NCBI GenBank assembly: GCA_964489835.1
Contig: CAZBBC010000008.1
Location: 10,992 to 74,991, forward strand
Reading direction: 5' to 3'
Length of the DNA: 64,000 bases
Source: an uncultured Calditrichota bacterium
Lineage (GTDB): Bacteria > Calditrichota > Calditrichia > JAJRVZ01
The position numbers and the translations under genes are program-made. Below, in pieces: positions 17,153-64,000 of the stretch (the stretch's first letter is position 1; every line of letters begins with the position of its first letter). The notes below the pieces were generated by a model. That model was given only the letters and a program-made list of their open reading frames with translations, did no database searches and was not told where the DNA came from.

Positions 17153-17280
17153 ATGATTTCCCTAATACAATCCGCTACGGGAGGATATTGCATAGAAGTG
17201 ATATTATCCTGAAATGTCATTCCTGTCCCTTCCTGTATTGTAAAAAATAACCACCACGCCAATAGGCGGGCAGGCAGAGT

Positions 17281-17470
17281 GCACGAAGGACACGAAGTTT
17301 TTAAATATTATCATAATTTTTGTGCTAACCCCGCTTTAGATTAAAGAATTATCAATAAAAGATCTTCGTGAACTTCGTTTGCTCTGTGGTGAAAGATTTT
17401 TATATGTTCTATTTTGATCGGCCATAGGCCGTCGCTCACCCGAAGGGCAAGCCTAGGGCCTCTGTGGTTG
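17281..17470. repeat. MITE-like element with CACGAAG-type terminal inverted repeats.
   Basis: gcacgaaggacacgaagtt ... gatcttcgtgaacttcgtttgctctgtggt ... cctctgtggttg. The termini match those of the elements at 50621-51010 and 63831-64000. Adjacent gtcattcctgtcccttcctgt (17215) recurs at 18541. Confidence 0.6.
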
Positions 17471-17503
17471 TTTTTTTATTATCCTTTTTATATTTTTTTG
17501 AAT

Positions 17504-18085
17504 CTAATTTGAGCTAACAATATCTTCCAGTATTTCTATTATTTCAGCACGACCGGTTTTTTTACGGGCAGAAAAACGTATAAATTTCTTATCCGGAAAT
17601 TCAGCGCGAATTTTTGAATTAAAAATGCTGAATAGATTATTTGATATCTTATCACTTTTTGTCAGGACAAATATAAAAGGTATTTGATAGAAATTTAACC
17701 AGTCGATCATTATCCGGTCATTTTTCATAAGATCATGACGTGGATCAATAAGCAGGAAAACTAGTTTAAGAAAATTATTATTTTTAAGATAGGACTCTAT
17801 ATTTTTCTGCCATTTATTCTTATCTTCTGCGGATAATCTAGCAAAACCATAGCCGGGTAGATCAACAAAATATAGCTGGTCATCCACTGAAAAATAATTA
17901 ATCAAACGTGTTTTTCCAGGAGTCGAACTTATTTTGGCAAGATTTCTACGATTGAACAATGCATTGATCAATGACGACTTTCCAACATTTGAGCGACCGA
18001 CAACAGCCACTTCAGCCATTTTAGGGAGAGGTCTCTGATCCAAATGAACGGCACTTTTCAGGAATTGAACGTTATGAATGTTCAT
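17504..18085 (-). CDS. engB: Ribosome biogenesis GTP-binding protein EngB/YsxC.
   Basis: G1 GRSNVGKSSLINAL, DLPGYG (G3), LTKSDK (G4). 193 aa. Confidence 0.85.
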   Translation of the reverse strand: MNIHNVQFLKSAVHLDQRPLPKMAEVAVVGRSNVGKSSLINALFNRRNLAKISSTPGKTRLINYFSVDDQLYFVDLPGYGFARLSAEDKNKWQKNIESYLKNNNFLKLVFLLIDPRHDLMKNDRIMIDWLNFYQIPFIFVLTKSDKISNNLFSIFNSKIRAEFPDKKFIRFSARKKTGRAEIIEILEDIVSSN

Positions 18086-18102
18086 GAAAAGCCGAATCAG
18101 GA

Positions 18103-18441
18103 TTAAATATGTTTTTCAATCTTTGATTCCAGCATCGATTTTGGAACGGCACCAACGACCTGATCAACAATCTGTCCATTCTTGAAGATCAATAATGTCG
18201 GAATAGAACGTATACCAAATTTCATGGCGGTATCCGGATTATTGTCGACATCCATTTTTACTACTTTAAGACTACCTTCTCTCTCAGTTGCCAGCTCCTC
18301 AACCATTGGAGCAATCATTCGGCATGGTGCACACCATACGGCCCAGAAATCTACCAAAACCGGTAATTCTGATTTTAGAACCTCTTCTTCAAATGTCGCG
18401 TCGGTGACCTCAAAATATTTTCCCATTGCATCCTCCATCAT
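18103..18441 (-). CDS. trxA: Thioredoxin.
   Basis: [22 protein letters not shown] carries the WCxPC active site. 112 aa. Confidence 0.9.
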
Positions 18442-18454
18442 CTATTGTAATGTA

Positions 18455-18760
18455 TTTTTACTCTTCTATGTTATTTATTTACAATCCTCTAACCCCCTTT
18501 TCTGGGGCTGTTGTAAAACTAGCGAAAAAGACCAAAACTGTCATGCCTGTCCCTTCCTGTCATTCCTGCGAAGGCAGCAATCCAGAAGGGATAAACTCCA
18601 GCAGTGATCCATGTTAACAAACCACCTAAGTGTCTGTTTTTTATGGATTCCTCCCGCTCCATGAGCGGGACGGGAATGAAAGTTCGTTACGCATATTAAC
18701 AAACAAGGTCTGATTTTAAGGGGAGACTTAATGGTCGCCATATGCTATATTTAAAATTCA
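18455..18760. repeat. Composite of intergenic repeat modules (families C and E).
   Basis: ctcttctatgttatttatttacaatcctctaacccccttttct is near-identical to 41516-41560. tgtcatgcctgtcccttcctgtcattcctgcgaagg matches 17215. ttttaaggggagacttaatggtcgccatatgctatatttaaaattcatga matches 61681-61735 and, inverted, 27245-27300. Hairpin tcccgctccatgagcggga. Confidence 0.6.
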
Positions 18761-18916
18761 TGATTTATTTAGACTAACTAATAGTTTTATTATTTACTAA
18801 CTTTTTATAATCATCCATCGTATTAATATTAAAAAACAGGTCAGAAATATACCCAGCATTTTTAAAATCTACAAATTTGACGTTTAATTTTTCAATATGG
18901 TATAAGAGAATTTTCC

Positions 18917-19393: not shown

Positions 19394-19426
19394 GCTAAAT
19401 GTAAAATAAATAGTATACTAAAATTG

Positions 19427-21598
19427 TTATTTTTTATTATCCAAATCAGATTTTTCCCTTCGATTGTCTATATCCTTTTGTTCGCTTTCTGTTTTATCGT
19501 CAGGAGATTTTATACTTTTATCATTTTCCGGCTTTATAACTTTATTTATATTTTCTTTTTGTAACGTTGAAGATAGAGAGTCTACAGCCGGTTTTGGTGA
19601 AGACAAAGAATCCGCGGCCGCTGGTAGTGGTATATCTTCTTCGACAGGTGGTTCCTTTATCTTGTTCTTGGCAATCTTGCCAATTTCCGAACTAGGATAT
19701 TCTTTCGCTGCCAGGGTATAAGCATCAACAGCACCCTGAATATCCTGAATTTTCGTTTCATATATCCAGGCAATAACATATCTGGACTTCTGTGCGAGCA
19801 TACTGCCGGAATCCTCATTAGCTATCTGTCTGAAAATATCAATCGCTCCAAGATATTTCTCCTCCGAAATCAATTTTTCGCCTTGCAAAAAAAGATTTTT
19901 GTACGTTAATATTTCATCCTCGTCTTCGGTTGTATCCTCTTTTGGTCCAACTAAATAAGCGGCATATGGCGATTCCGGATAATCCAAGAGAATAATTTGT
20001 TTGATCGAATCAGCTTTGTCAAATAATTGCAGACCGTAATTATAAGTATAATAGAGAGAATAATACGCCTTGGGCACCAGAATCGAGTCGTTAGATGATT
20101 TGATGAATTTCTGATATGCTACTGCTGCACTGTCGTAATTAACAAGAGTGAGCAGGAAGAATTCAGCCATGGAAAACATGTTTTTCTTAAGAGATTTTTC
20201 TATATCAGCGGCAAATCTAATCACCGGCTTTTTAGCCGGCTTTGCTGTTTCTTTTCCTTTTATTTTTGTTTCATTTACAGCTTTCTCAAATTCAGATCTA
20301 TCAAATTCAACCGCATTAATTTCAGCTGTATCAATTTCAGCCGCATTAATTTCAGCTGCATTAAGTTCAGCTGCATTAATTTCAGCCGCATTAATTTCAG
20401 CTGCATTAATTTCAGCCGCATTAAGTTCAGCTGTATCAATTTCAGCGTATTCCAGCCCCAATGAATCAAAAGCGAGACTATCGGTATTAATTTTTTCCAA
20501 ATCGGCTAAATCACGTTCAATATTCGTCCTGATCTTCCGATACTTGTCTAAAATGCCCGCTCTTTTATCCGCCTCTTCTTTGAATTCTGTATCTCTGTAT
20601 TCCTTTCCGACCTTTTGATATAATTTTTTTGCAGAATCAATATTCACATAATAAAATTCCATTAACTTTGCCATCCCGTAAGCAGCAATAGCAGATCCTT
20701 CTGTTCGGGGATAGGTTTCCATTACTTCATTATAAACATCGGTCGCCTCGGGAATCTGATCTTTGATGACATAGATATCTCCAATCCGTGCATTGATCAG
20801 GGCTTTTTTATCTAAAAATTTACCTATTTGGGCAATTTCTTCGAGAATTGTTATTGCCCGGTCCTGTTCATCCAGTTCAATCAGGCAATCCACCTTTCTC
20901 ATGTTCGCGTCATAAAGTATTTCAACCGATGTATCAAATTCATTGACACCATCATATCTGGTCAGAGCCTCCGAATAATTCTGTTCATTATAATAGGTTT
21001 CTGCAATAAGGAATTGTGCTTTGGCTTCCAATTCCTCATTACTGGAATTCTCAATGATCTTATCAAATTGAACACGTGCATTTTTGTAGTCTTCATTTTT
21101 ATAATATATTCGTCCCAAATTATGATAGGCCTCAGCAGTCAAATCATCATCATCATCAGAAGAAATCACTCTGTTCAGGTATTCCAGCGCTTCATCATCC
21201 CGATCCATTTCTATCAATGCCATCGCTAACAATAAGTAAGCTTCAGTGATCCACTCACTATTTTTATATTTTGCATTAAACTGTAATAAATATCTTTCTG
21301 CTTTCGGGTACTCTTTAACCTGATAATAGCTCTTTCCAATCAGGAGCAACGCTTCATCCGCATAGCTACTACTATCACTGTAGATATTTATCAGCTTCCA
21401 GCATTTATCAATGGTTTTGTAAAAATCGTTGCGTATATCCGATGTGATTTCGCCATCCCGACTACTTTTTATTTTTTTAACACCTTCCTCATACTTTTCC
21501 TGGGCATTGAAAAGCGTATTATAGTAGGCACATCCAACGATCATCACCAAAGGCATTAAAAATAAATAAATTGTTTTTCGCATTCTCATCATGATCAA
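19427..21598 (-). CDS. TPR-repeat lipoprotein with an internal (N/D)(A/T)AE(I/L) pentapeptide tandem-repeat tract and a Lys/Asp/Pro-rich low-complexity C-terminus.
   Basis: Lipobox MIVGC. Multiple TPR-like helices (AEAYHNLGRIYYKNEDYKNA etc.). Central tract AEIDTAELNAAEINAAEINAAEINAAELNAAEINAAEIDTAEINAVEF. C-terminal PKPAVDSLSS...KSDLDNKK. Confidence 0.7.
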   Translation of the reverse strand: MIMMRMRKTIYLFLMPLVMIVGCAYYNTLFNAQEKYEEGVKKIKSSRDGEITSDIRNDFYKTIDKCWKLINIYSDSSSYADEALLLIGKSYYQVKEYPKAERYLLQFNAKYKNSEWITEAYLLLAMALIEMDRDDEALEYLNRVISSDDDDDLTAEAYHNLGRIYYKNEDYKNARVQFDKIIENSSNEELEAKAQFLIAETYYNEQNYSEALTRYDGVNEFDTSVEILYDANMRKVDCLIELDEQDRAITILEEIAQIGKFLDKKALINARIGDIYVIKDQIPEATDVYNEVMETYPRTEGSAIAAYGMAKLMEFYYVNIDSAKKLYQKVGKEYRDTEFKEEADKRAGILDKYRKIRTNIERDLADLEKINTDSLAFDSLGLEYAEIDTAELNAAEINAAEINAAEINAAELNAAEINAAEIDTAEINAVEFDRSEFEKAVNETKIKGKETAKPAKKPVIRFAADIEKSLKKNMFSMAEFFLLTLVNYDSAAVAYQKFIKSSNDSILVPKAYYSLYYTYNYGLQLFDKADSIKQIILLDYPESPYAAYLVGPKEDTTEDEDEILTYKNLFLQGEKLISEEKYLGAIDIFRQIANEDSGSMLAQKSRYVIAWIYETKIQDIQGAVDAYTLAAKEYPSSEIGKIAKNKIKEPPVEEDIPLPAAADSLSSPKPAVDSLSSTLQKENINKVIKPENDKSIKSPDDKTESEQKDIDNRREKSDLDNKK
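20296..20458. repeat. About 10-11 copies of a 15-bp tandem repeat (consensus TTCAGCYGCATTAAK) inside the TPR-lipoprotein gene.
   Basis: Read directly: ttcagccgcattaatttcagctgcattaagttcagctgcattaatttcagccgcattaatttcagctgcattaatttcagccgcattaag... The repeat is in frame and encodes the AEINA pentapeptide. Confidence 0.9.
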
Positions 21599-21604
21599 TC
21601 AGAA

Positions 21605-22342: not shown

Positions 22343-22517
22343 TCACCCCCCACAAATTTTCAGGTTTCGTCAAATATATCTACTAATAGTCATTCAGATG
22401 TCAGTCATAATCAAAATAGCCAATGTTGTAAGTATACCAAATACCAGGAATCTCCTGGTTACTATAGAGTTTAATGTAATCGAGAAGATGAGGTTCCTTG
22501 ATTTTTTTTATTCTTTC

Positions 22518-23841: not shown

Positions 23842-23880
23842 AAGGAGGAGCCCATGCTGTCCCTCCAAAAGAACTAAAGT

Positions 23881-24000
23881 CCACGAATTACACGAATTAT
23901 ACAAGGATTTCACAAATTTTTGCTATATTATTCATGTCTTTTTTGTTGAATCCAAATAAAACAGTATTAATATATTATTTCTAATTCGTGTAATTCGTGG
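23881..24000. repeat. 120-bp MITE-like element bounded by a perfect 19-bp inverted repeat.
   Basis: ccacgaattacacgaatta ... 82 bp AT-rich ... taattcgtgtaattcgtgg. Same CACGAA/TTCGTG dyad theme as other elements. The track ORF 23778..23984 spans it and is likely spurious. Confidence 0.8.
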
Positions 24001-24049
24001 AAAAAACTCCACACCTGCCTCACATATTACAGTTTTACAAGATTAGCGA

Positions 24050-24730: not shown

Positions 24731-25098
24731 CCTGTCTCCTATTTAAATTAATATTTTTACGTTTTAATTCCTGAATACTACACCGGGCATGGCACGCCGT
24801 GCCCCTCGTTGAGGGAAATCCCAAATCACAAGCACCAAATCCCAAATAATTCCCAATAACCAATCCCCCGATAAGAGATGTCGTCCTCAGACGACTTACC
24901 GGACCTAAATCATGCATGATATAGCAAATTCCTATTCTGAAATCCTGGATGATTTCATCCCGATCATGCCAGTAGGTGGATTCGCCCGCTGTGAATTTGT
25001 TGCCCGGAGGGAATCGTTATCATCGGGGCTAGTTCCCAGTTCCGAGTTCCAAGTTCCAAATATTTGTTTTTTTACTTCCCACTTCCTACTTTAACTGA

Positions 25099-25174
25099 GG
25101 TACCCCAGGAGAGATTCGAACTCCCGACACATGGCTTAGGAAGCCACTGCTCTATCCTGCTGAGCTACTGGGGC
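25099..25174 (-). tRNA. tRNA-Arg (anticodon CCT).
   Basis: Reverse complement reads GCCCCAGTAGCTCAGCAGGATAGAGCAGTGGCTTCCTAAGCCATGTGTCGGGAGTTCGAATCTCTCCTGGGGTACC. 7-bp acceptor stem, D-arm GCTC/GAGC, anticodon loop TTCCTAA, T-arm GGGAG-TTCGAAT-CTCTC. CC of the CCA is encoded. Confidence 0.8.
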
Positions 25175-25242
25175 GAAAAAACAATTTTAAATTATAAATT
25201 GTAAATTTTCAATCACCACTGATCGAAGCCTGTCCCAATGTG

Positions 25243-25283
25243 ACCAAAAACTTTAATTTTGCTATCACTCTGAGGATCCCGAC
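25243..25283 (-). other. Degenerate tRNA-like fragment (5-prime acceptor/D-arm start plus T-arm-like hairpin) upstream of tRNA-Arg.
   Basis: Reverse complement GCCCCGGTAGCTCATCCCTGACTTTGTCGGGATCCTCAG begins like the tRNA-Arg 5-prime end (GCCCCAGTAGCTCAGC) and shares TGTCGGGA with its T-arm, but lacks the anticodon arm and 3-prime acceptor strand. Confidence 0.3.
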
Positions 25284-25613
25284 AAAGTCAGGGATGAGCT
25301 ACCGGGGCAAAAATTAACAATTATTAATTTATTAAAAATAAACTCTTAAGGCAAGGAATGAGAAGGGCTAATATCATATGAAGGAAAGAAATAAAACGGA
25401 GACCGGAGGCCGGATACCGGTAACCGGAAAACTTTCAATGCTATGCCCGGTTCAGGCGGATTCGCACGCCAATTGGCGCATTTTCAACCTACTGGCGAAT
25501 TTCATTTGTCATTGTGGCTTGGGAATTGTGATTTTATTATATCCTGCCCGGCTATTAATAGTTTGCTCGAAACAAAGATGGGTATTTTGTTATGTTATGG
25601 CAGATAATAAGAA

Positions 25614-25739
25614 TTAAGCAGGATCGTAACCTCTTCTTCTGTACTCGGTATCGTTCCGATGAGCTTTTCTCCTCTCACCAATCTTTAACTTACCTCGGAC
25701 TACCTTAGCGAAAGTACGTTTTATTGTTTGGCTAAGCAT
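25614..25739 (-). CDS. Possible small (41-aa) highly basic protein. Hypothetical.
   Basis: Internal ATG of track ORF 25614..25841, preceded by AGGAAAAAATATG. Product MLSQTIKRTFAKVVRGKLKIGERRKAHRNDTEYRRRGYDPA is very Lys/Arg-rich, with no family recognised. Confidence 0.2.
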   Translation of the reverse strand: MLSQTIKRTFAKVVRGKLKIGERRKAHRNDTEYRRRGYDPA

Positions 25740-25928
25740 ATTTTTTCCTTTATGATTAGTGACTGATAGTGACAGAGTGAATAAATTCTTATATGTGTAG
25801 ATAATTCCCCATAAGCTAATTGTGATAAGTACAAATGGCAAGGGATTTTAAAAATCATTTCGATGTTTGATTTAATAAATAAAAATTTATTTTTTCTTTG
25901 CAGTTAGCCGGCGCTGCGAGACAACATT

Positions 25929-27020: not shown

Positions 27021-27239
27021 AATATTTTATCTTTATAATAAATTTTTACTATTCCTGATTTTCGATGGTTCAATTACAATGTGAATCTTATAAGATAAAC
27101 AGCAATTTAACTTTTATTCAAATTTAAATAAATAGAAGTACCGTAAAAAATTACAGGGATTTCCTATTCCAGGTAATAGACGCGATAAAAAGAAAAGTGC
27201 TATTAATTATTTTACTAAAGTCATTGAATTAATAAATCA

Positions 27240-27400
27240 GTTAACCTGGTTAATTCATGAATTTTAAATTCATCAAGTAGCGACAGTAAAATCTCCCCTT
27301 AAAAAAGGGATTAAGGGATTGTAAAATTTCGATTATCCTATAACCTTTTTTGATAGACAACCCCCCGCCCCCTTTTCTAAGGGGGAGTTAAATAATTGAT
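27240..27400. repeat. Intergenic repeat modules of family C (inverted orientation) with a poly-C/poly-G hairpin.
   Basis: ttaattcatgaattttaaattcatcaagtagcgacagtaaaatctccccttaaaa is the reverse complement of the 18700-18740 / 61681-61735 module. ccccccgcccccttttctaagggggag matches 41540-41570. Confidence 0.6.
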
Positions 27401-27661
27401 TTCATGGAAGTTATTGAATCTGACCTTAAGATTTGTGAATAATTCAGGTTAATTGATTTACATTATAATATAAAAAGGTATTGGAATACAGTAAAAATAA
27501 TCGAAATACGCCCATATTTTAGTTCTAAGAGGCTAAAATAGGTGGTGGGAGTATTATATATATATTTATAATCTTGTGTGCATTCTGAGAGAGGTGGTGC
27601 TAATAGCATAATAGGAGGAATAGATCAGATCTTACGGTTATAACTTGTAATTAAGGATAAT

Positions 27662-30326: not shown

Positions 30327-30360
30327 AAAAAAAAAGGGATGCGTAAGCATCCCTTTTTAT
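30327..30360. terminator. Rho-independent terminator (bidirectional A-run / hairpin / T-run) downstream of the FadL-like gene.
   Basis: aaaaaaaaa GGGATGC gtaa GCATCCC ttttt. Confidence 0.65.
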
Positions 30361-32757: not shown

Positions 32758-33124
32758 TTTTTTACTCCAATAAATTATACTATGTAATTCTAATTATTTT
32801 AAACTTAAAGTCTTATCTCTTTTTTTCTGTATTATTACCACAAAAAACTTGATTATTTAAGCACCCTTTCGATGTCATTCAGTCCGCCGGGAGACGGATC
32901 CGCTTACTGGCCTGAAAGGAATCTTTCAAATTGTTGGCTAAATCCAACAAGAAAAAAGATCCTTACAGGATGACAAAATTAATTATTTTTTGTCTGCAGT
33001 TTTATGCTATTATAGCCAAAAACTTCGTTATTTTTTAAAAAATTTTTTTATTTTAGCAAAATTTTTGCTACTTGGATTATTCATTTCTCGCAGCGGCGCA
33101 GAGACACGACTATTTATAAATAAT

Positions 33125-33240
33125 TATTTTAGTTTTAATCCGTGTTAATTCGTGTCAGTCTTCGCCTGATCCGGCGTAGACGGATAATCCGTGGACAAAT
33201 TCTTTTTTTGATTGCAGCCAACGGCTGCGGTATGAATAAT
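33125..33240. repeat. Family A miniature intergenic repeat element (forward orientation).
   Basis: ttttaatccgtgttaattcgtgtcagtcttcgcctgatccggcgtagacggataatccgtggacaaattctttttttgattgcagccaacggctgcggtatgaata is near-identical to 61762-61868, and inverted to 54508-54615. Confidence 0.85.
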
Positions 33241-33245
33241 TAAGT

Positions 33246-33779
33246 TTAATTATAACAAATCAATGATAATATATCGTATTCGTTTATCAACTCCCGGCCT
33301 TTCAGAAAGCCCAATTCGATCAGGAATAAAATCGCTTCAACTTTCGCCCCTGATCTTTCGATCAAATGACAGGATGCCCGGGCAGTACCGCCGGTTGCCA
33401 GCAGATCATCAACGAGAAGCACTCTTGCACCGTGTTCGATGGCATCGGCGTGGATCTCGACGCTGTCCGTCCCATACTCCAGTGAATATTCTTCACGGAG
33501 AATTTTAGCCGGGAGTTTACCGGGTTTTCTGACAGGAACAAAACTTTTATTCAATTTATAAGCCAAAGCAGATCCAAAAATAAATCCTCTTGATTCAATT
33601 GCCGCGACGATATCAAACGATCTGTTTTTTATCAAATCATGTAACTGATCGATTGATTGAGCGAACAGATCAGCATCCTTTAAAAGCGTTGTGATATCTT
33701 TAAAGATGATACCCTTCTTGGGAAAATCCGGCACATCACGGATGGATGCTTTTAGTCTTACTATTTTATCTTCGTTCAT
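33246..33779 (-). CDS. apt: Adenine phosphoribosyltransferase.
   Basis: PDFPKKGIIFKDIT and PRPP-binding VLLVDDLLATGGTARA. Confidence 0.9.
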   Translation of the reverse strand: MNEDKIVRLKASIRDVPDFPKKGIIFKDITTLLKDADLFAQSIDQLHDLIKNRSFDIVAAIESRGFIFGSALAYKLNKSFVPVRKPGKLPAKILREEYSLEYGTDSVEIHADAIEHGARVLLVDDLLATGGTARASCHLIERSGAKVEAILFLIELGFLKGRELINEYDILSLICYN

Positions 33780-33791: not shown

Positions 33792-34067
33792 TTAATACTC
33801 GACAGAAAATTTTTGATATTTAGCTGTATATGGTTCAAAAGTGAAATCAATATTATCAACCAAAGAAAAACCCGGACCCTGTTCCAATATTGTCTTATAG
33901 TGTTCTATCACTTCTTTTTCGCCTTCAATACGCACTTCAACACTTCCGTCCGCAAGATTTTTAACATATCCCTTCAAACCATAGTCATTGGCGTGGCGCA
34001 TGGCGAAATAGCGAAAACCAACACCCTGAACTCTCCCCACAACCCGGATATGCGCACCTGTCATCAT
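33792..34067 (-). CDS. acyP: Acylphosphatase.
   Basis: VVGRVQGVGFRYF and GYVKNLADGSVEV, the acylphosphatase signatures. 91 aa. Confidence 0.85.
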   Translation of the reverse strand: MMTGAHIRVVGRVQGVGFRYFAMRHANDYGLKGYVKNLADGSVEVRIEGEKEVIEHYKTILEQGPGFSLVDNIDFTFEPYTAKYQKFSVEY

Positions 34068-35928: not shown

Positions 35929-36267
35929 AACCCTATGTTATAATATTTATCCGGAAACCTTGCAATTTATATATAACTCTATAATCATTCAACCTTATAT
36001 CAGAAAAAGTAAGCGGTAAAATATAAGTGACTAGAGTTAAAAGTGAACAAAAGTGACTAAAGTGTGTCATTCACCTCTCGCGGAGACGCTGAGACGCAAG
36101 GATTTGAATTTAAAGGATTTATGTCAGAACACCTTAACTATTTATTATATTGCTTTCCCGACATGTCGGGACTCGCAATGACGCTTCCATGATTGTCATT
36201 TCGAGGAGTGAAGAATAAACGACCATGAAATCTTTTGTATTTTTTCTTTTGTATTTTGTATTATTTC

Positions 36268-37278: not shown

Positions 37279-37283
37279 AATGC

Positions 37284-38165
37284 TTATTTAGATAACAGGA
37301 TAGGTTTTACTGCTCCGCGCATGACCTCTACCGTAGTGCTGCCGAGGATGGCCTCTCTAATTCTTGAATGTCCGTATCTACCCATAATTAAAAGTGTCGG
37401 TTTTGGTGCATCGACAGTAACCTTGGTTAATATTTTACCGACATCACCAACTTCATGACGAAATTTTGATTCAACATCATATGGTTTTAAGTATATGCGT
37501 GCTTCTTCCAACGTTTCCTGCCGTTCTCTCTCATCATCATGAATGGTCAGCACTTCAATGGGAAGATTTAATTCTTCGGCTAAATAAGCCGTCAGTTTTA
37601 ATCCATTGTTGCTTGATTCTCCCCGGTCATATGCACAGGTAATCGACTGAAACGGTTGATACGATTTATCTACGATCATCAATGGGGAAAGAATCTGGCG
37701 TGAAACCGATTCAAGGGTCGCGCCCAGCAAGCGATCACCCCAGCGGGCATAATCGCCGCGAGCCCCTAGAATAACCAGATCCACTTTTCGTGAAATATCG
37801 CAAATAACCTCCTCCGGAGCTCCTTCTAATTTATCTGCTTCAAAGTTTACATTATTTTTCTTCAATTTTTTCCGGAGACTATTTATCAACACTTCTGCTC
37901 TTTCAGTGTGAAACTTATGAGACTCATCATGGAAAACATTTGCCGGAATCACCGGCATATAACCTTCCCCACCGGTATTCAGGACCCATTCATAAATCCT
38001 TATATCGATAACGGTGTAAACACGAAGAAACGCATTCAGTTTTTTGGCGAGATCGATCCCATAATCAATGACCGAATCGGTATAAATAGATCCATCCACT
38101 GCCAATAAAATGGATTTTATCATTTTCACTCCTAAAAAAAAGTTGGTAGTTTGAAAGAAAACCAC
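37284..38165 (-). CDS. Universal stress protein, tandem UspA domains.
   Basis: MIKSILLAVDGS... and a second domain ending GSTTVEVMRGAVKPILLSK. Likely true start at MIKSIL (38124). Confidence 0.8.
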   Translation of the reverse strand: MVFFQTTNFFLGVKMIKSILLAVDGSIYTDSVIDYGIDLAKKLNAFLRVYTVIDIRIYEWVLNTGGEGYMPVIPANVFHDESHKFHTERAEVLINSLRKKLKKNNVNFEADKLEGAPEEVICDISRKVDLVILGARGDYARWGDRLLGATLESVSRQILSPLMIVDKSYQPFQSITCAYDRGESSNNGLKLTAYLAEELNLPIEVLTIHDDERERQETLEEARIYLKPYDVESKFRHEVGDVGKILTKVTVDAPKPTLLIMGRYGHSRIREAILGSTTVEVMRGAVKPILLSK

Positions 38166-38336
38166 AGATTACACGGGGTAATTTATTAATTTTAATTATG
38201 TTAATACTGTTTCTCATTAGCTCAGGAAATTATTTGCCCAATAATATGTTTGAAAGGAAATTCTTTAAGAATTCTCAGAGTAATTCTCTGAGGTCTCTGT
38301 GGTTTTCTAATCCAGTTTTACATATAACTACGAACG

Positions 38337-41023: not shown

Positions 41024-41305
41024 TTAACCAATATCAAGTTTGGAAAATAAATCAGATATTGGACCGGATGCGGCCGCTACTTTATTCAACATCAGGAGCA
41101 AATCTTCTTCCATATAGGGAAGCAAAGCCAGTGTGATATGTCCCGGCGCCGTGGGAATACCGACAAAAGAACCAAATACCAGCAAAGCAAAAACATTCTC
41201 CAGTTCAGAGGTTTCCCATTCCAGGACATCTGTTGCTTTGTGACGGGCTATCGAATTGAACAGATTACCTTTGTCTTTAAAAAATCCGGATAGTTTTTTA
41301 AGCAT
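41024..41305 (-). CDS. Hypothetical 93-aa protein, translationally coupled upstream of the ArsA-like ATPase.
   Basis: 2-nt gap to the ATPase start. Central hydrophobic segment VFALLVFGSFVGIPTAPGHITLALLPY. No family recognised. Confidence 0.4.
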   Translation of the reverse strand: MLKKLSGFFKDKGNLFNSIARHKATDVLEWETSELENVFALLVFGSFVGIPTAPGHITLALLPYMEEDLLLMLNKVAAASGPISDLFSKLDIG

Positions 41306-41454
41306 TATCTGTATTTTTATTAATTTTTTAATAAGCTACGTTTAAGTTAGTGTCAAAATTAATCACATATATTCTATATAAATTATTATTTTTAAAGAGT
41401 ATGAACTAATTCCCCCTTAGTAGGAATTGTTGCAGATTTGATTTATTGGCACAA

Positions 41455-41700
41455 TTTATCAGAATTGCATGATCTGTCTCCCCCTTGATAAAGGGGGACT
41501 AAGGGGGATATATACTCTTCTATGTTATTTATTTACAACCTCCTAACCCCCTTTTCTAAGGGGGAATAGATTTTACTTAATCGATGTTTCAAATGAACTT
41601 TTTCTAAAAAATAACCTAAACTCCAATAGCCCAATAAATGGGATTAGTCCCCCTTTTCAAAGGAGGAGACAGAGCTTTCATACATCAAAAGCTGCACGAA
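41455..41700. repeat. Family C repeat cluster (poly-C/poly-G hairpin modules).
   Basis: tctcccccttgataaagggggactaagggggat (matches 61585-61620), ctcttctatgttatttatttacaacctcctaacccccttttctaagggggaat (matches 18461-18510), and gattagtcccccttttcaaaggaggagaca. Confidence 0.7.
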
Positions 41701-43511: not shown

Positions 43512-43711
43512 ATAGTTCTCACTTTTTTATTTAGAGTAAACTGCAATCAGAAACCAGAAAGCTGAATGACGAAAGCAGAAATCCGTAAGCTAAAAACCGA
43601 AATCCTAACTGCTTACTGCCTTCTGCTCTCGGCTTTCTTACTTCCTACTTCTTACTTATAGTTTCTGCCTATAGTTTCTGCCTATGGCGATATGAAAACC
43701 CCGGTCAATCT

Positions 43712-47277: not shown

Positions 47278-47439
47278 GATACCTCCATAATCAGATGATA
47301 TATCGGTGGGATTATTAGAATATAATTGGGAATTTAGGCAAGGATAAGCAAGGAAGCAATAAGAATATGATCCAATTGCCCCGACTTTTAGATATTGTGG
47401 GAGAAATATTATTTACCACGGAAATACACGGAAAATACA

Positions 47440-47545
47440 TAATAGAGAATAACTTATTTGTATAAATTTATCTATTGTTAAATAATTTTTTAATAATTCT
47501 GTTTCAGTCCGTGCAAATCCGTGGTTGATTTTTAATTTTTATACA
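47440..47545. repeat. CGTG-dyad repeat modules.
   Basis: ccacggaaatacacggaaaatac (47415-47437) and cagtccgtgcaaatccgtggttg (47506-47528, as in 61770 ttaatccgtgcaaatcagtg). Confidence 0.5.
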
Positions 47546-48593: not shown

Positions 48594-49244
48594 TTATTTT
48601 AATAGTAGAGCCAGATTGACCACATCATCGGCCTGGGTGGGAAGTTGCGTTTGTTCACCTTCATCGGTTTCTAAATAGGTATTTAACTGATGGGTCCAGT
48701 TAACCAGGAGACCAAATTCAGGTAATCCGACAAAATCCAACTGCCTCTGGATGGAGACTTCTATACCATTGACAAAACCTGTGCCCAAATTTTGCATCTG
48801 TGTTACCTGATCCACCTTGAAACCATTAAATTCCCTGTCAGCTGGGGCAAAAGAAATTTCCTGTTGTACATTCGAAAGCGTCTTATTGAAATAGCCGACA
48901 GACATATGGGCGGCCAGACTGGGCGCATAATGTTCCAGGATGATGTCAAAATTTGTGGCTCGTGTTGGATCCAAATCAGAATTACCGGTCATAGTCAGTC
49001 AGATTATAAAATGAATAATAAGCCTTTAGGTTGAATTTGTAACCTAAAGATGGTTTGTATAAGATGGCGTATTGACGCCACCTTTAAATTCTTCGGTTTC
49101 AGTTGGTGCATCACGATAGTATCGACGACCTACATCGATCGGATTTCCATTGATATCGACATAGGACTCTTCTAGTTCATCATCTTCCCAATTCCAGTCA
49201 TTTCGCTTATCTCTTTCCGAGAATGACGATAACAACACCGTCAT
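48594..49244 (-). pseudogene. Fragments of a TonB-dependent-receptor-like beta-barrel (two short ORFs, probably a decayed gene).
   Basis: 48594..48992 translates to alternating beta-strand sequence (GFKVDQVTQMQNLGTGFVNGIEVSIQRQL...GLLVNWTH) without plug or N-terminus. 49044..49244 is a second short fragment. No signal peptide. Confidence 0.35.
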
Positions 49245-49411
49245 TGCGAATAACGAAAAATGAGTAGCCTGCTCGCCTACCCTGTAAAACGGGGTCTACG
49301 ACGCGGCGGGACGAAACAATCTCTTGTAGTTATTGGTGTTATGTCAATTTTTACGGATTAAATGTTAGGGGTACTCCAGTTAATATATTAAGTACCCATT
49401 TCAAACAAAAT

Positions 49412-50587
49412 TCAATTAAGTGTCACTAAATGCATTAAAGTGTAATCACCCCCACTGGTATCATCGCGGTATATTTCAACCTTTACTTCATCATCGCCGG
49501 TGATAATTCTCAAAAAAGTACTTCTGGCAAGATTGGCGTTAACCCGGAAGGTCTTTTGGTAACTCTCCCGTAAAGCCTCATTCTCAGTAAATTGTTTATA
49601 ATATATGGAAAGGATATCCAAGGCCGTTTTATCATCAATTTTTTTATAAGAAATTCCGTTGGTCAGATCGGTATAATAGAGGATCTTCTTGGCCTCATAG
49701 GCATTTTCTTCAAAGTAGGCGGCAATCGATTTTTCTTCCCCCAACCCTTTTATTCTTCCGTACTCAATTTTTTCCGATATTCCCTTGATAATTAGTGATG
49801 GAATGGTTGCCTCGAGCCCCCGGGCATGCCCGACATCTATCTGCCAGAGACCATTAATTTTTGCAACAGAGGCATTGTGTGTATGTCCGCAAAAATAGGC
49901 TTTCACCTTGAATTGACGAAGTAACTGGTGAAATCGAAAGCTACTTTTTGGATATTTATCCAGTGAATCCCCCTGGTGCCGGATGCGTCCATTATCGATA
50001 TCCGGTATAGCCACCAGCGGTTCATGACCAAAAATAAAGATATATTTCTTTTTGTTGATCGTTAAATCTTCCTTCAGCCATTTCATTAATTCGGGCACGA
50101 TCTCACCATCAGTTCCTTTATCCGACTGCCCATCATAATATTGATTAAGAACAATAAAGTGATTATCTCCCCAATCAAAAGAATAGGTTGTCTCCTCACA
50201 ACCGGGAGGACCTTTCCGCACGATATTTGGAAGAGATGTACCGCCTTCATTATAAGCACGCAGGTATTCTAGATCAGCGTCCGGTTCCAATTCATGATTT
50301 CCAACTACCGGATACCAGGGATATGTTTCACCTAAGACAAGTGAAATAACTTCCCGTATGGCGTACGGTGGATCAATATCTCCCGGGCTTACCATAAAGG
50401 CTCCTTTACCCGCTTTTTTTATCGCTTCACAGGCGCCAAGGAAATATTGTGATGTTCGATATTCCGGCATTGCTTTTTCGCGCATATCTGCGGCAACGAT
50501 AAAGGTAAACTCACCGTCATTCTTTTCGCAGCAGTGCGCAAAAAACACACATGATAGTAGTAGTAATAATAATACTCTTTTCTTCAT
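49412..50587 (-). CDS. Calcineurin-like metallophosphoesterase, lipoprotein. Start at MKKRVLLLL; the track ORF extends to 50659.
   Basis: Signal/lipobox LLLLSCVFFAHCC. GNHE and GHTHN metallophosphatase motifs. Confidence 0.75.
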   Translation of the reverse strand: MKKRVLLLLLLSCVFFAHCCEKNDGEFTFIVAADMREKAMPEYRTSQYFLGACEAIKKAGKGAFMVSPGDIDPPYAIREVISLVLGETYPWYPVVGNHELEPDADLEYLRAYNEGGTSLPNIVRKGPPGCEETTYSFDWGDNHFIVLNQYYDGQSDKGTDGEIVPELMKWLKEDLTINKKKYIFIFGHEPLVAIPDIDNGRIRHQGDSLDKYPKSSFRFHQLLRQFKVKAYFCGHTHNASVAKINGLWQIDVGHARGLEATIPSLIIKGISEKIEYGRIKGLGEEKSIAAYFEENAYEAKKILYYTDLTNGISYKKIDDKTALDILSIYYKQFTENEALRESYQKTFRVNANLARSTFLRIITGDDEVKVEIYRDDTSGGDYTLMHLVTLN

Positions 50588-50620
50588 CTCCCACCTAATA
50601 TTTAGTATTAACCCAGTGAA

Positions 50621-51010
50621 TTTATAAACCACAGAGGACACGAAGGAAGCAAATAACAATATTTAAACCATTCAATCATTTTAATAATCATTTTCTGATT
50701 ATGTCCTTAACTCCACAAAAATCCTATAGATTGCTTTCCGCCTCAGCGGATCAGCCGAGGCTGACGCTAACGTTCGCAATGACGATAATGAGTTGGTCAG
50801 TGCGAATCTCGAATAGTGAATATTTGGCCTGTCATCTGGGAAGGACCTTCTTATGTGATCGTATCATACCGACACTTTAAAAGATCCCTACGGGATGACA
50901 GGAATGCTTTCACATGTGGCGTTTCACGTCTGACGTTTGACGTCTCACTATAAATTTAATTATTCAATATTCTTTCTTTTCTTCGTGAACTTCGTGCACT
51001 TCGTGGTTGC
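50621..51010. repeat. About 390-bp composite MITE-like element with terminal inverted repeats.
   Basis: Left end tttataaaccacagaggacacgaaggaagc. Right end cttcgtgaacttcgtgcacttcgtggttgc (inverted). The interior carries family E modules (gtcatctgggaagg ... gggatgacaggaatg) and gtttcacgtctgacgtttgacgtctcac. Confidence 0.65.
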
Positions 51011-53251: not shown

Positions 53252-53294
53252 CAGCGTTCCTTCTAACGGGTGAGTTAGAATTTACAGAGATAAT

Positions 53295-53375
53295 AGATCC
53301 ACGGATTATCCGTCGCAGCCGGATCCCGTCATAGCCACGTCTGCGCCGCGCCTGCCGCGTCGTAGACCCTTTTTG
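53295..53375. repeat. Partial family A repeat plus GC-rich word.
   Basis: gatccacggattatccgtcgcagccggatcc, and cgtctgcgccgcgcctgccgcgtcgtagaccc (matches 22751 and inverted 49290-49315). Confidence 0.65.
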
Positions 53376-53408
53376 ACACTACCTCGGATTAAAATAACTT
53401 ACAAAGAC

Positions 53409-54452: not shown

Positions 54453-54507
54453 TTATTCCTCCAGAATTAAACTTTTAAAATATCTATATGCATAATTAGC
54501 CTAACCT

Positions 54508-54700
54508 ATTCATACCGCAGCATATTGCTGCAATCAAAGAAAAAAATAGTCCACGGATTATCCGTCTACGCCGGATCAGGCGAAGACTGACACGAATTAG
54601 CACGGATTAAAACTAAAATAATATTAATTTTTATTTAAAATCTGTGTCAATCCGTGAAATCTGTGGATAAAAAACGCTGCGCCGCTTTGAGAGACGAATT
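54508..54700. repeat. Family A repeat element (inverted orientation) plus adjacent CGTG-dyad module.
   Basis: 54508-54615 is the reverse complement of 33131-33236 (cataccgcagcatattgctgcaatcaaag...gtccacggattatccgtctacgccggatcaggcgaagactgacacgaattagcacggattaaaac), followed by tctgtgtcaatccgtgaaatctgtggat. Confidence 0.85.
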
Positions 54701-58764: not shown

Positions 58765-58890
58765 AGAGACACGGAGACGCAGCGTTTTTTGTCCACGGAT
58801 TATCCGGCTTCGACGAAAAATCTGTTAATCAATTCGTGAAATTCGTGGATATATTTCTCTGCGGCTTTGCGGCTCTGCGAGAGATAGTAT
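58765..58890. repeat. Partial family A repeat (inverted) with CGTG dyad.
   Basis: cacggagacgcagcgttttttgtccacggattatccggcttcgacgaaaaatctgttaatcaattcgtgaaattcgtggat. The first part also resembles 36075 (cggagacgctgagacgc). Confidence 0.7.
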
Positions 58891-58971
58891 ATATCATAAA
58901 GTTTAGTGCCATTGGAAAAATTTTGCTTTATGTATTCTGTTTATCTTGTCTAATTTTTTTCTTATCAAAAT

Positions 58972-59919: not shown

Positions 59920-59920
59920 A

Positions 59921-61414: not shown

Positions 61415-61480
61415 TCGATAAAATTTGTGAGATTATATGTTATTCTAACCAAAAACTTTGTTATTTCCGCCCCAGCGATT

Positions 61481-61870
61481 AGCAAAAATTTTAAAAACTT
61501 TTATCCACGGATTTCACGGATTTTATTTAGCCTGAATTATTCATAAAATTAAATATTTAAGTCTATAAATAACCTAAAATCAATGAGTTAATTCCCCCTT
61601 AATAAAGGGGGTTAGGGGGATGTTTTAAACGTAATATTTTAAATTATATCAATGTTTTACAACCCCTTAGTCCCCTTTTTTTTAAGGGAAGACTTAATTG
61701 TCGCTATATGATAGATCTAAAATTCATGAATTAATCAGGTTAGAAATAATATTTATTTTAATTTTAATCCGTGCAAATCAGTGTCAGCCAATCACTTGAT
61801 CCGGCTTCGACGGATAATCCGTGGACAAAATCTTTTTTTTATCGCAGCATCGCTGCGTTATGTATTTATC
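61481..61870. repeat. Mosaic of all three repeat families in one spacer.
   Basis: ttatccacggatttcacggatt (CGTG dyad). aattcccccttaataaagggggttagggggat (family C). ttttaagggaagacttaattgtcgctatatgatagatctaaaattcatgaatta (family C module). 61762-61868 is a full family A copy (ttttaatccgtgcaaatcagtgtcagcc...cgacggataatccgtggacaaaatcttttttttatcgcagcatcgctgcgttatg). Confidence 0.85.
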
Positions 61871-61884
61871 AGGGTAATCCGGGG

Positions 61885-62694
61885 TCATCTTCGCCCGACA
61901 ATTTTTCTCATATTCTTAATCGTTTCCACTGCCGCAGTGTCAGAATCCGGATAAGGCAAAATCTCAGCTGAGACAAATCCGGTATAATTGATTTTTTCGA
62001 GACTATCGATAACGTTTTTAAAATCAATATGGCCGGCACCAGGATACCACCGGTTAGAATCGGCAATATGAAAATGGAAGAGATGCTTTTTAGCGGCAAT
62101 GATACTTTCGGTGATTGAGGGCTCTTCAATATTCATATGAAACGTATCGAGCAGAAGACCAACATTCTTCATATTTACTTTTTCTAGTATGCGCATACCA
62201 TCACCGACCGTATTGATCAGATTCGTTTCATACCGGTTAATTGGTTCAATGGCCAGCGGTACCGACGCATTTTCATCGGCACATTCCTGTAAAGCCTCTA
62301 TCAGCCAGGTTTCAGCCCGCTGATTTTCTGTTTCGGGCGTTCTTGTTCCGCGGATAAGCCCGATAATGACGGTGGTCTTTAGCAGATCTGCCAAATGCAC
62401 CTGTGATTTGATACGGTTAATCGCTTTTGTCCTAATATTGACATCCGCGTTTGTGAAGGACAATCCTTCTTCACCATAGGCCTGGCCGGTTCCCAGGGCC
62501 GGAACCGGCAGATCATTCACTGAGAGTAATGACTGTAATTCTTTTAAATTCAGAGATTCGGGATCACGTACGGCTAGTTCCACACCATCATAGCCCAGAT
62601 CTTTAATTTTCTTTATATTTTCAGCCATCTGGCCTTTGTAGGCTAAAGCGGAAAAGGATGCCGGTTGTACCGATAGGACAATACTCAATTTCAA
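61885..62694 (-). CDS. Sugar phosphate isomerase/epimerase (xylose-isomerase-like TIM barrel).
   Basis: 269 aa. LGYDGVEL..., metal-binding HxD...E...H...D...E pattern (VGLLLDTFHMNIEE, HFHIADSNR). Confidence 0.75.
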   Translation of the reverse strand: MKLSIVLSVQPASFSALAYKGQMAENIKKIKDLGYDGVELAVRDPESLNLKELQSLLSVNDLPVPALGTGQAYGEEGLSFTNADVNIRTKAINRIKSQVHLADLLKTTVIIGLIRGTRTPETENQRAETWLIEALQECADENASVPLAIEPINRYETNLINTVGDGMRILEKVNMKNVGLLLDTFHMNIEEPSITESIIAAKKHLFHFHIADSNRWYPGAGHIDFKNVIDSLEKINYTGFVSAEILPYPDSDTAAVETIKNMRKIVGRR

Positions 62695-62697
62695 CAG

Positions 62698-63792
62698 TTA
62701 TAGCCCCATTTTGTTGATCGCATATATCGGACGCCAACCTTTTGTAAAAGGTTCTTTCATAAAAGGTTCCATTTCAGATTCGGTTCTCATCGTCGTTTTT
62801 TCAATAGGAGGTACTTTACCGGCCGGGAATGCTTCCAATATTTCGTCATGCACCAGTGTTAAATAAGATAAAATCGCTGCAATCGTCCGTCTTGCTTTTT
62901 TCGCATCTCCAAGGGTTGGACGTCCCACAACCCCTTCCGGTATGGATCCCATCTCTGTAGGAAAATGACCCTGGCCTTCTGACCATTTACTGGGACGGGC
63001 AAAGGGATCCACGGCTTTGTCAAAATGTCCGTCGGGCAGATATCCCTCGACCTTTGTCTCTTCAGCGTGGTGCATCTCTACAAATTGGGGACCAAGCAGC
63101 AACATTACCGAGGTTTCGGCCTCATCGGCATGAACAAAATTATCATCCCAATCACCACCCCGGTCCTTGGTACGGAAAAATTCCCGAACAGCCCGATGCC
63201 AGTCGATGACACGAAAAATTCCCGGTAAATTCCATGTTTTTTGAAGCTCCTGAATCGCGGCCTCCAACAACCATTGATGTCCGTGATTGTTGATAAGGAT
63301 CATCTTCCGGAAACCATCATTCCAGAATCCTACCATAACATCAATAAGGATACGTTTGAGAACTTCATCTTCAATATGAATGGTCCCGGGCATACCGATA
63401 TGGTGATGCGGATGTCCGCCAAAATTAAGTGGTGTCCAGGTCAGATTAACCGCATTACCACGTTTTGCCGTAAATCGGCGCACACCCTCAAGAATTTGAG
63501 TGACCATGAAAGTATCAAGAGCCGTTACCGTATGCAAGCCGTGTAATTCGGTACAACCCACCGGAATAAATAATATATCGTTCCTTTTTCTGTTCTCGAC
63601 GACTTGATGCCGAATGGTGGTTTGTATATATGTACCCGGATTTCCAAGTTCCGGGGGGCTGGGGATTCCATAATCAGCGAGTATTTTCGTAATTTCATCC
63701 TCCGATGCTTCCCATATCTTCTTTTTTAAACGACCCACCGTTGTATCTTCAAAAAAAAGATCTTCCCGGTTTGTTTTTAACCACTTCTCCAT
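62698..63792 (-). CDS. Creatininase-family amidohydrolase.
   Basis: ILFIPVGCTELHGLH, NFGGHPHHHIGMPGTIHI, ILINNHGHQ and HADEAETSVML parallel the creatininase motifs (PVGxxEQHGPH, VNGHGGN, HAGExETS). Family assignment from memory. Confidence 0.55.
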   Translation of the reverse strand: MEKWLKTNREDLFFEDTTVGRLKKKIWEASEDEITKILADYGIPSPPELGNPGTYIQTTIRHQVVENRKRNDILFIPVGCTELHGLHTVTALDTFMVTQILEGVRRFTAKRGNAVNLTWTPLNFGGHPHHHIGMPGTIHIEDEVLKRILIDVMVGFWNDGFRKMILINNHGHQWLLEAAIQELQKTWNLPGIFRVIDWHRAVREFFRTKDRGGDWDDNFVHADEAETSVMLLLGPQFVEMHHAEETKVEGYLPDGHFDKAVDPFARPSKWSEGQGHFPTEMGSIPEGVVGRPTLGDAKKARRTIAAILSYLTLVHDEILEAFPAGKVPPIEKTTMRTESEMEPFMKEPFTKGWRPIYAINKMGL

Positions 63793-63830
63793 CGTTTTCC
63801 TCCGCTATTTTATTATTGACTTGATCTATT

Positions 63831-64000
63831 TATAAACCACGAAGCACACTAAGGACACGAAGTTAAAAAACAATTAAGAATTTAGAATTATAAATTTGAA
63901 CAAGAAGTAATAGGCGCTAACGTTATGTCATTAATATCTTCACATTCTTAATTCGTAATTTTTAATTCTTAATTTCGAGAAGACCTTCGTGTGCTTCGTG
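63831..64000. repeat. MITE-like element with CACGAAG terminal inverted repeats (may continue past window end).
   Basis: tataaaccacgaagcacactaaggacacgaagtt ... AT-rich interior ... gaagaccttcgtgtgcttcgtg. Left end is near-identical to 50621-50650. Confidence 0.75.

Follow-up and report, generated by a model that had tools for sequence, protein, structure and literature searches.

The intergenic spacers of a 64-kb stretch of a contig from an uncultured Calditrichota bacterium (CAZBBC010000008.1, assembly GCA_964489835.1; the whole stretch of 64,000 nucleotides is called the window below) are probably mosaics of small hairpin elements resembling repetitive extragenic palindromic (REP) sequences and bacterial interspersed mosaic elements (BIMEs). 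The dominant family among them, family A, probably consists of orphan, gene-less forms of a cassette built around a gene for a GxxExxY protein, with the encoded nuclease as their presumed mobilizing agent. The modules are repeated above chance, form hairpins whose arms covary, are polymorphic between strains, lack target-site duplications, occur across phyla and share their arms with GxxExxY loci. That the nuclease recognizes these arms and mobilizes the hairpins in trans is what we infer by analogy with REPs and the REP-associated tyrosine transposases (RAYTs). Our view of this genome is the window itself, part of one contig of a Calditrichia metagenome-assembled genome (MAG); loci from related strains and from public DNA carry L numbers.

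Spacers, with a GC content of 28-40%, amount to 12.6 kb of the window against 51.4 kb of coding DNA, or one fifth of its length. An all-versus-all blastn comparison of 33 spacers returned 21 inter-spacer high-scoring segment pairs of at least 35 bits (mean of 0.03 in 30 dinucleotide shuffles) and 34 of at least 30 bits (1.1 in dinucleotide shuffles). The motif CGTGN{5,6}CGTG occurs 12 times, always in spacers, compared with 0.92 +/- 0.90 times in shuffled sequence, and the octamers AATTCGTG and AAGGGGGA each show a spacer to coding ratio of 8:0, as AATCCGTG does of 11:1. Repetition of the kind reported by the first-pass annotation thus lies far above what shuffling produces. Longer matches join distant spacers, many of them inverted, in line with the view that copies lie on both strands in shuffled combinations: positions 33123-33253 are 89% identical to the reverse complement of 54492-54622 and 82% identical to 61748-61865; 18714-18795 matches both 61680-61763 and the reverse complement of 27217-27304; 18459-18503 is 93% identical to 41513-41557; and a 217-nt block is common to the spacers at 27.0-27.6 and 61.5-61.8 kb, where it runs in opposite directions (27242-27452 against the reverse complement of 61527-61742, 74%). 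All 16 spacers that the first-pass annotation had listed hold at least one module recurring in the window or in related or public DNA. Its statement that nearly every spacer is colonized was too strong, in that most are, namely 17 of the 26 between 17 and 64 kb that reach 60 bp or more; nothing recurrent was found in those at 22.3-22.8, 24.7-25.9, 28.7, 29.8-30.4, 40.0, 45.3 and 57.6 kb. Positions 1-17000 are without any module copy, despite lying on the same contig with similar composition; the spacers there are short or coding.

About 50 module instances fall into at least ten families, where three had been counted before. Besides family A there is composite B, 131 nt long in its three full copies and present in three partial ones as well, in which a collapsed arm pair (GACGGATAATCCGTGGA), a T-run and a GCAGC hairpin are attached to a family-A arm; family C is a CCCCCTT-loop-AAGGGGG hairpin with an extra TTAGGGGG; family F is a GTCATTGCGAG..CGAAGCAATC hairpin; family G has the form GTCATYC..GGATCTTCC-loop-inverse; and D, E, H, I, J and K are additional recurring blocks. 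The families interlock, so that the spacer at 61415-61884 contains J, A, C, C, D and B modules, and that at 50585-51010 contains an A element with G and F modules nested within it.

Family A is built from 9-10-nt units with the consensus (T)CCACGRATT followed by CACGRATT, arranged as direct doublets or triplets in arms of 18-27 nt. Each arm faces an inverted array across 25-330 bp of AT-rich DNA, giving elements of 60-380 bp whose terminal stems span 16-20 bp (fold z -3.5 to -7.9) and whose palindrome continues into A/T runs of the flanks. Pairs of arms are found at 17.3, 23.9, 38.2, 47.4, 50.6-51.0, 54.6, 58.8, 61.5-61.8 and 63.8-64.0 kb. Within an element the arms agree in unit subtype (CACGAAG, CACGAAT, CACGGAT or CACGGAA; permutation p 0.004). 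The copies are as follows; E values refer to a covariance model (CM, described below), and strands are given, here and in the later list, where one applies.

17276..17391, A1, hairpin with CACGAAG-type arms and an AT-rich interior of ~70 nt; CM R1 (metagenome hairpins only) E 8e-4, terminal stem, z -4.25
23878..24003, A2, hairpin (CCACGAATTACACGAATTA ... TAATTCGTGTAATTCGTGG) with a 20-bp perfect stem; CM E 2e-8, z -7.86
38159..38316, A3, degenerate hairpin (ACCACAGATTACACGG ... CTCTGAGGTCTCTGTGGTT); weak, CM E 0.43, arms visible
47413..47527, A4, hairpin with CACGGAA-type arms; CM E 0.01, z -4.57
50627..51007, A5, element with triple-unit arms and 330 bp of nested modules (F3, G2 and a GACGTCA unit array); recognized as an arm pair
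54584..54669, A6, hairpin overlapping the arm of composite B2; CM E 2e-7, z -3.45
58790..58851, A9, hairpin (TCCACGGATTATCCGG ... AATTCGTGAAATTCGTGGATA); CM E 2e-3
61501..61788, A7, arms at 61501-61524 and 61764-61788 enclosing C8, C9 and D3; recognized as an arm pair
63834..64000, A8, hairpin extending to the window end; CM E 4e-4, self-inverted match

The outer arm end often reads TTATCCACG or TTATCCACA, reminiscent of a DnaA box; this reading was dropped because only the outermost unit resembles the box, the inner units being unlike it.

Beyond this genome, the arm pattern TCCACGRATTTCACGRATT was recovered in at least 120 stretches of metagenome contigs ranging from 31 to 65% GC, and in seven viral contigs. 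The canonical public form of family A is a near-perfect hairpin of 62-70 nt with three units per arm. For 29 independent hairpins from metagenomes the share of paired cells is 94.5%, compared with 84.3% in shuffles (0/500); this share is inflated because the set was chosen by a pattern demanding both arms. Controls in which the arms were slid paired no more than 43% of cells. The pattern does not force the two arms to co-vary in unit type. The covariation score is 0.270 against 0.103, with 57 cells changed on both sides against 18 (0/500 shuffles in each case). A covariance model built from these metagenome hairpins, with no window sequence in it, finds six sites in the window with E values from 2e-8 to 0.01. 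None of 38 hairpins examined has a direct target-site duplication, because their flanks are inverted complements (T-run..A-run or A-run..T-run) rather than direct repeats. Searches of Rfam returned no family for any module, with only the tRNA passing its gathering score; at E up to 5 MIR847 alone matched a module, scoring 32.7 bits where its gathering score is 184, and we take this as chance. Literature searches for the arm strings and the F-family strings returned nothing, or primers only. Two metagenome contigs hold several copies each, L122 with five arm copies in a tandem array of period ~300 nt (11891-12561) and L172 with five canonical 62-nt hairpins in 5.7 kb (230-4594).

Families C and F are likewise cosmopolitan, which, like the tie of family A to GxxExxY nuclease gene cassettes, the first-pass annotation had not foreseen. 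The F-family pattern occurs in at least 120 viral contigs (30-72% GC) and the C-family pattern in 22 (L342-L363, 33-68% GC). In the former (L222-L341) the hairpin reads CGTCATTGCGAG..CGAAGCAATC(CAG)-loop-inverted copy, a layout like that of REPINs, which are REP doublets. In the latter the form TTCCCCCTT-loop-AAGGGGGTTAGGGGG(A/T)TT recurs nearly letter for letter, with window counterparts at 61589-61625 and 41474-41568.

Among the matches listed, GxxExxY is the only family of open reading frames (ORFs) that recurs in at least five of 127 arm loci. The arm-linked protein is ~123 aa long and matches TIGR04256 'GxxExxY' and PF13366 PDDEXK_3 with E values of 1e-39 to 1e-45; it is a predicted PD-(D/E)XK nuclease with a Cas4-like fold. 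Eleven such ORFs were found in 0.68 Mb of arm-derived loci, again among the matches listed, and none in ~1.4 Mb of loci fetched with AsnRS. They occur in two layouts, with the gene in the loop between two arms (L149, L367) or with a full hairpin on each side of it (L179, L195, L364). When the search was started from the gene instead, unit arrays flanked GxxExxY in nine of nine loci, from Bacteroidota, Spirochaetota, Gemmatimonadota, Fusobacteriota and Alphaproteobacteria. In the five Bacteroidota-like loci arms lie at the gene and almost none in the rest of the 11-20 kb stretches; the other four are distant homologues on named plasmids or chromids. Units of the same kind flank the gene there: a 10-bp inverted pair (CACGGATTC) flanks the gene in Treponema saccharophilum, a three-unit CGCGGAT hairpin at 72% GC accompanies it in Gemmatirosa, and AATCAGTG and AATCCGTG units lie on both sides in a Fusobacteria bacterium. 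In Sphingomonas parapaucimobilis (NZ_CP155749.1, 482837-483265; L372), where the gene separates fabD from fabG within the core operon for fatty-acid synthesis, CGCGAAG units immediately precede the ATG on its 5' side. Other copies lie within polysaccharide, aryl-polyene and type I restriction-modification operons (L220, L367, L179). This is a very large family: one search gave more than 7,000 close homologues, most of them on short contigs, as expected for an assembly-breaking repeat. A 2012 survey listed its function as unknown (PMC3424549), and in the literature on GxxExxY, PDDEXK_3 and PF05635 we found no paper describing flanking repeats. No sequence relative was found in the PDB, and no GxxExxY relative in viral contigs. 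The window copies of family A match the arms of these cassettes with no GxxExxY gene between or beside them, and are for that reason called orphan arms.

The spacers turn over between closely related strains. Two relatives are syntenic with 47.7-64 kb of the window, at coding identities of mostly 89-96% (L083) and 89-92% (L084), and homology blocks stop at gene ends, with orthologous spacers carrying different modules in most of those shared. The spacer between the alcohol dehydrogenase (ADH) and major facilitator superfamily (MFS) genes measures ~30 bp in L083, 157 bp in the window and ~520 bp in L084, where it carries a family-A element of its own; that between the FAD-oxidase and ADH genes holds three unrelated inserts in three strains; and that between the AP-endonuclease and ABC transporter genes is 129 bp in L083 and 470 bp in the window. 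The nucleotide 42 nt ahead of the creatininase ATG is bordered by two different elements, the end of a family-A element in the window and that of a composite B in L083. Both arms of A5 are kept in L083 around a different interior, and the F-family copy nested in A5 is found in the window only. In the more distant L087, which has the same spacer architecture, coding sequence is 65-74% identical to that of the window and short module matches 87-94%. Strain junctions show no target-site duplication. Because of this module turnover spacers reach 250-470 bp here where the same ones can be 30-130 bp in a sister strain, which bears out the earlier view that the elements account for spacer length. The strain-level turnover shows recent gain and loss.

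On the explanation we favour, the modules would be scattered DNA of a selfish or near-neutral nature, with copies arising, disappearing, collapsing and being exchanged over the time in which strains diverge. Family A would be the gene-less form of a cosmopolitan cassette in which unit arrays bracket the ~123-aa GxxExxY protein. A GxxExxY nuclease encoded elsewhere in the genome would recognize the periodic units where the DNA forms a hairpin or cruciform, and help the hairpins to be copied, excised or recombined; these would then relate to the nuclease as REPs and REPINs do to a RAYT, or as miniature inverted-repeat transposable elements (MITEs) do to their parent element.

Several observations weigh against this explanation. 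No GxxExxY gene was found in the window (profile search of all ORFs of at least 60 aa) or in 60 kb of related Calditrichia loci (L083-L088), so any trans-acting nuclease in this genome is putative. The unit arrays at GxxExxY genes could be operators or RNA-processing sites of the gene rather than mobility ends. For families B to K there is no associated gene, a search beside the F and C hairpins having given only phage structural genes. Strain comparisons recovered no clean pair of filled and empty sites with exact element boundaries, and at the one near-empty site (ADH|MFS in L083) there is a small inversion as a further difference. Visible mobility is not common to all families: the spacer at 41.3-41.8 kb, which holds four C hairpins, is kept in three strains, L085 and L086 being collinear with the window through it at ~96% identity, and turnover is therefore episodic and family-dependent.

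The last of these observations also fits a different account, in which the modules are selected cis-acting elements (terminators or attenuators, RNase III or mRNA-stabilizing hairpins, promoters, protein-binding sites) that resemble each other through a shared factor rather than through mobility. In two places a family-A arm stops exactly 43 nt before a start codon, with a 47-nt proximal block common to both (50601-50647 and 63809-63855), and the 9-10-bp unit period fits a protein binding one face of the helix. Yet at the same place beside the same genes, sister strains carry other modules or none at all. Terminator-like sites are mildly enriched (32 against 17.9 +/- 4.1, and 25 against 15.6 +/- 4.3), and in GC-richer contigs some hairpins have A-run...T-run flanks resembling bidirectional terminators, but a T-run on the sense strand is missing from most hairpins, modules coincide with no more than four weak terminator-like sites on the strand of the genes, and the clear terminator at 30331-30358 is not a repeat; the earlier suggestion of a terminator role is therefore not supported. 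The right part of composite B carries TTGATT-N17-TATGAA(T) and faces the downstream gene in three of six copies, whereas orientation to transcription is mixed overall and the other three copies run antisense into a gene 3' end; composite B was rejected as a promoter for this inconsistency, and promoter-like sites are not clearly enriched (52 against 54.6 +/- 6.9, and 84 against 67.7 +/- 8.4). No known structured RNA was matched in Rfam, even at E up to 5. We regard a purely cis-acting role as unlikely.

It is improbable that the hairpins are REPs or REPINs spread by a RAYT, an IS200-like Y1 HUH transposase, encoded elsewhere in the genome. They are extragenic imperfect palindromes, often inverted doublets, and lack target-site duplications as REPs do; family F has the REPIN layout of a small hairpin unit, a loop and an inverted copy; GTAG occurs in two of five module-B copies; and in one viral locus (L296) an IS200-like TnpA lies 190 nt from an F hairpin. 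Against this, a phmmer search gave no Y1 protein beside the family-A arms of the 127 loci among the matches listed, nor any in the window or its relatives, and one match in 120 F-family loci among the matches listed; the query was an IS200 TnpA sequence, with limited sensitivity to distant RAYTs, which could be missed. REP families are normally species-specific, whereas these modules recur across phyla, and family A is consistently linked to another protein, GxxExxY. RAYT-driven REPs are not supported for family A, and nor is the proposed label of palindrome-associated transposable element (PATE), no IS200/IS605 Y1 gene having been found near the arms; RAYT-driven REPs may account for family F.

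Classical MITEs, that is internal deletions of an insertion sequence (IS) with a DDE transposase and shared terminal inverted repeats, would likewise have inverted arms of 18-27 nt around 60-380 bp of non-coding DNA, inserted in either orientation and present or absent between strains, and ends with several direct binding-site-like units recall those of Tn7 and Mu, which carry multiple such units. This origin is nevertheless very improbable. The 38 hairpins have inverted complements at their flanks in place of direct target-site duplications, and compensatory arm variation is not easily tolerated by a transposase that recognizes a fixed end. A Pfam scan of 50 window proteins revealed no transposase, whose absence the first-pass annotation had already stated, and no integrase or other mobility domain; the modules are non-coding and have no mobility gene nearby. 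No transposase-like ORF recurs beside the arms in 127 public loci among the matches listed, and the MITE label given by that annotation is not supported. Chance similarity or misassembly, which AT-rich spacers and the sometimes chimeric nature of repeat-rich MAG contigs might suggest, is refuted by the shuffle controls, by the 100% identity of independent JGI and Logan assemblies over 3.3 kb including two spacers (35396-38721), by the recovery of the 41.3-41.8 kb spacer in two further strains, and by modules in unrelated public contigs.

The copies of the other families, with the comparison that identifies each, are as follows.

33123..33253, + strand, composite B1, 131 nt, F-type arm, GCCTGATCCGGCGTAGACGGATAATCCGTGGA, T-run, GCAGCC..GGCTGC hairpin and GGTATGAATA; 89% to B2, 82% to B3
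54492..54622, - strand, composite B2; 89% to B1
61748..61878, + strand, composite B3; 82% to B1
53298..53332, - strand, B4, partial composite, collapsed arm pair TCCACGGATTATCCGTC; spacer empty in L083
34546..34616, + strand, B6, partial composite, solo arm, T-run, GCAGC hairpin and GTATGAATAG; self-comparison
27358..27388, family C hairpin (CCCCCTT-loop-AAGGGGG), second copy at 27288-27322; octamer enrichment 8:0
41405..41668, four family C hairpins (41405-41428, 41474-41510, 41538-41568, 41640-41668) and module E2; kept at ~96% in L085/L086
61589..61695, C8 (61589-61625, TTCCCCCTTAATAAAGGGGGTTAGGGGGAT) and C9 (61661-61695); same form in 22 viral contigs
18714..18795, + strand, module D1, ~82 nt; 79% to D3, 73% to the reverse complement of D2
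27217..27452, - strand, module D2 and long form (27242-27452); reverse complement of 61527-61742
61527..61763, + strand, module D3 and long form; pairs with the D2 long form
18454..18503, + strand, module E1; 93% to 41513-41557
36072..36222, GCG-unit array I1 (TCTCGCGGAGACGCTGAGACGCAAGG) and family F remnant F1 (36168-36222); I1 resembles L084 3511-3587
49222..49335, F2, degenerate hairpin (GTCATTGCGA..GACGAAACAATC type) with module K1 (49283-49310) nested; canonical copies in L083 and L084
50740..50812, F3, nested in A5; absent at this site in L083
32874..32984, G1, hairpin (GTCATTC..GGAATCTTTC ... AAAGATCC..GGATGAC); seven copies in 21.7 kb of the relative L087
50826..50910, G2, hairpin nested in A5; sequence comparison
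17212..17236, + strand, module H1; 92% to 18536-18560
33014..33036, + strand, module J1 (AGCCAAAAACTTCGTTATTT), second copy at 61444-61470; found in L087 too
53351..53378, - strand, module K2, inverted copy of 49283-49310; self-comparison

A G-quadruplex was considered for family C and fails because the modules hold two or three G-tracts only. Where B4 and K2 lie in the window, comparison of 53252-53408 with L083 10160-10189 shows that a 17-nt piece next to the ADH stop codon (GAGGTAGTGTCAAAAAG) is inverted in L083 (ACACTACCTC), which suggests that a small palindrome-mediated inversion may have accompanied insertion at this site. The F2 region coincides with a decayed gene for a TonB-dependent receptor (48594-49411), of which a 132-aa ORF and one further fragment remain; the receptor is intact in L083 (918 aa, L083 14698-17454), and its lost 5' part is filled in the window by F- and K-family modules.

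The window has ~40% GC, and nearly all of its genes lie on the minus strand and are of the housekeeping kind, encoding among others thioredoxin, EngB, AsnRS, FBPase, GpsA, PlsY, CstA and a sugar ABC transporter; a 950-aa FAD/Fe-S oxidoreductase is also encoded, and one protein carries a type IX secretion system (T9SS) sorting domain. Several spacers are shorter than they appear, because they contain small genes (DUF7990 at ~41027-41305, acylphosphatase at ~33795-34063) or the decayed TonB-receptor gene (48.6-49.2 kb). The sole RNA gene, tRNA-Arg(CCT) at 25099-25174, lies in a gene-poor 1.2 kb (24731-25928) whose own short unit arrays (agttcccagttccgagttccaagttcc; ccaaatcccaaat) are found nowhere else in the window. 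In the spacer at 43512-43711 short purine-rich units (cagaaaccagaaagc ... gctttcttacttcc) form a self-inverted array, which is conserved in both L085 and L086 and may be another hairpin family. The terminator at 30331-30358 is strong, bidirectional and intrinsic, with a 12-bp stem and T-runs on both strands, and is the clearest in the two stretches scanned (17-37 and 44-64 kb). Finally, a 15-nt tandem repeat of ~14 copies (20260-20469) within the gene for a 723-aa tetratricopeptide repeat (TPR) protein encodes a five-residue repeat with a weak match to Pfam 'Decapeptide'.

The organization of these spacers is most like that of the BIMEs of E. coli, which are mosaics of REP units, and the Neisseria intergenic mosaic elements (NIMEs), in which RS units lie between dRS3 repeats. 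In all three cases a few short palindromic modules form extragenic mosaics of variable order and orientation, nested or in tandem, with contents that differ between strains. The window modules differ in that they have no sequence relation to either, in that their arms consist of direct units of 9-10 nt set in arrays where those systems have single palindromes, and in that several families cross phyla. With REPs and REPINs they share extragenic imperfect palindromes, inverted doublets with compensatory changes, the lack of target-site duplication and many orphan copies, and with the REP and RAYT system a small enzyme gene that is characteristically flanked by the repeats. Here, however, the gene flanked by family A encodes a predicted PD-(D/E)XK GxxExxY nuclease and not a Y1 HUH enzyme, and the repeats are cross-phylum instead of species-specific. 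MITEs, including Correia elements, are comparable in being small and non-coding with inverted ends and in the apparent coexistence of gene-less and gene-bearing forms, but differ in that the ends of the window hairpins vary by covariation and are found with neither target-site duplication nor transposase.

For the gene-bearing form, the intervening sequences of 23S rRNA offer a parallel, being hairpin-bounded inserts, some with a small ORF, that are removed by RNase III. In both a small selfish ORF sits in the loop of a long stem with inverted ends inside essential transcription units, as where GxxExxY follows on one of fabD and fabG and precedes the other, or lies within operons for polysaccharides and aryl polyenes. 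The GxxExxY cassettes are outside rRNA and encode a different ORF family. Within the same phylum, Caldithrix abyssi has an 18-nt intergenic palindrome (aAACCGTTgaAACGGTTt) that its authors described as REP-like (PMC5317091). Although also intergenic, it is unrelated in sequence to the window modules and consists of single short palindromes in low copy that are not mosaic.

We tentatively propose that unit-array hairpins and GxxExxY together might constitute an undescribed cross-phylum mobile cassette. Its sole protein would be a small Cas4-like PD-(D/E)XK nuclease that recognizes the units on hairpin or cruciform DNA and brings about insertion, excision or recombination with no target-site duplication, and the cassette would have ends that pair so that operons are left unharmed, while gene-less hairpins multiply and fill spacers. 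The cosmopolitan hairpins GTCATTGCGAG..CGAAGCAATC and CCCCCTT..AAGGGGGTTAGGGGG may be analogous elements with other partners. If the link holds, TIGR04256/PF13366, a very large family of unknown function, would gain a testable DNA substrate, and a common class of intergenic hairpins, which is also a source of spurious small ORFs in the window translations, would be explained. In this lineage the repeats account for spacer length and strain-level structural variation, and they are a likely cause of fragmented MAG assemblies. A nuclease-linked, REP-like system extending from Calditrichota to Alphaproteobacteria would, if true, enlarge the small number of known routes by which short repeats are dispersed in bacterial genomes.

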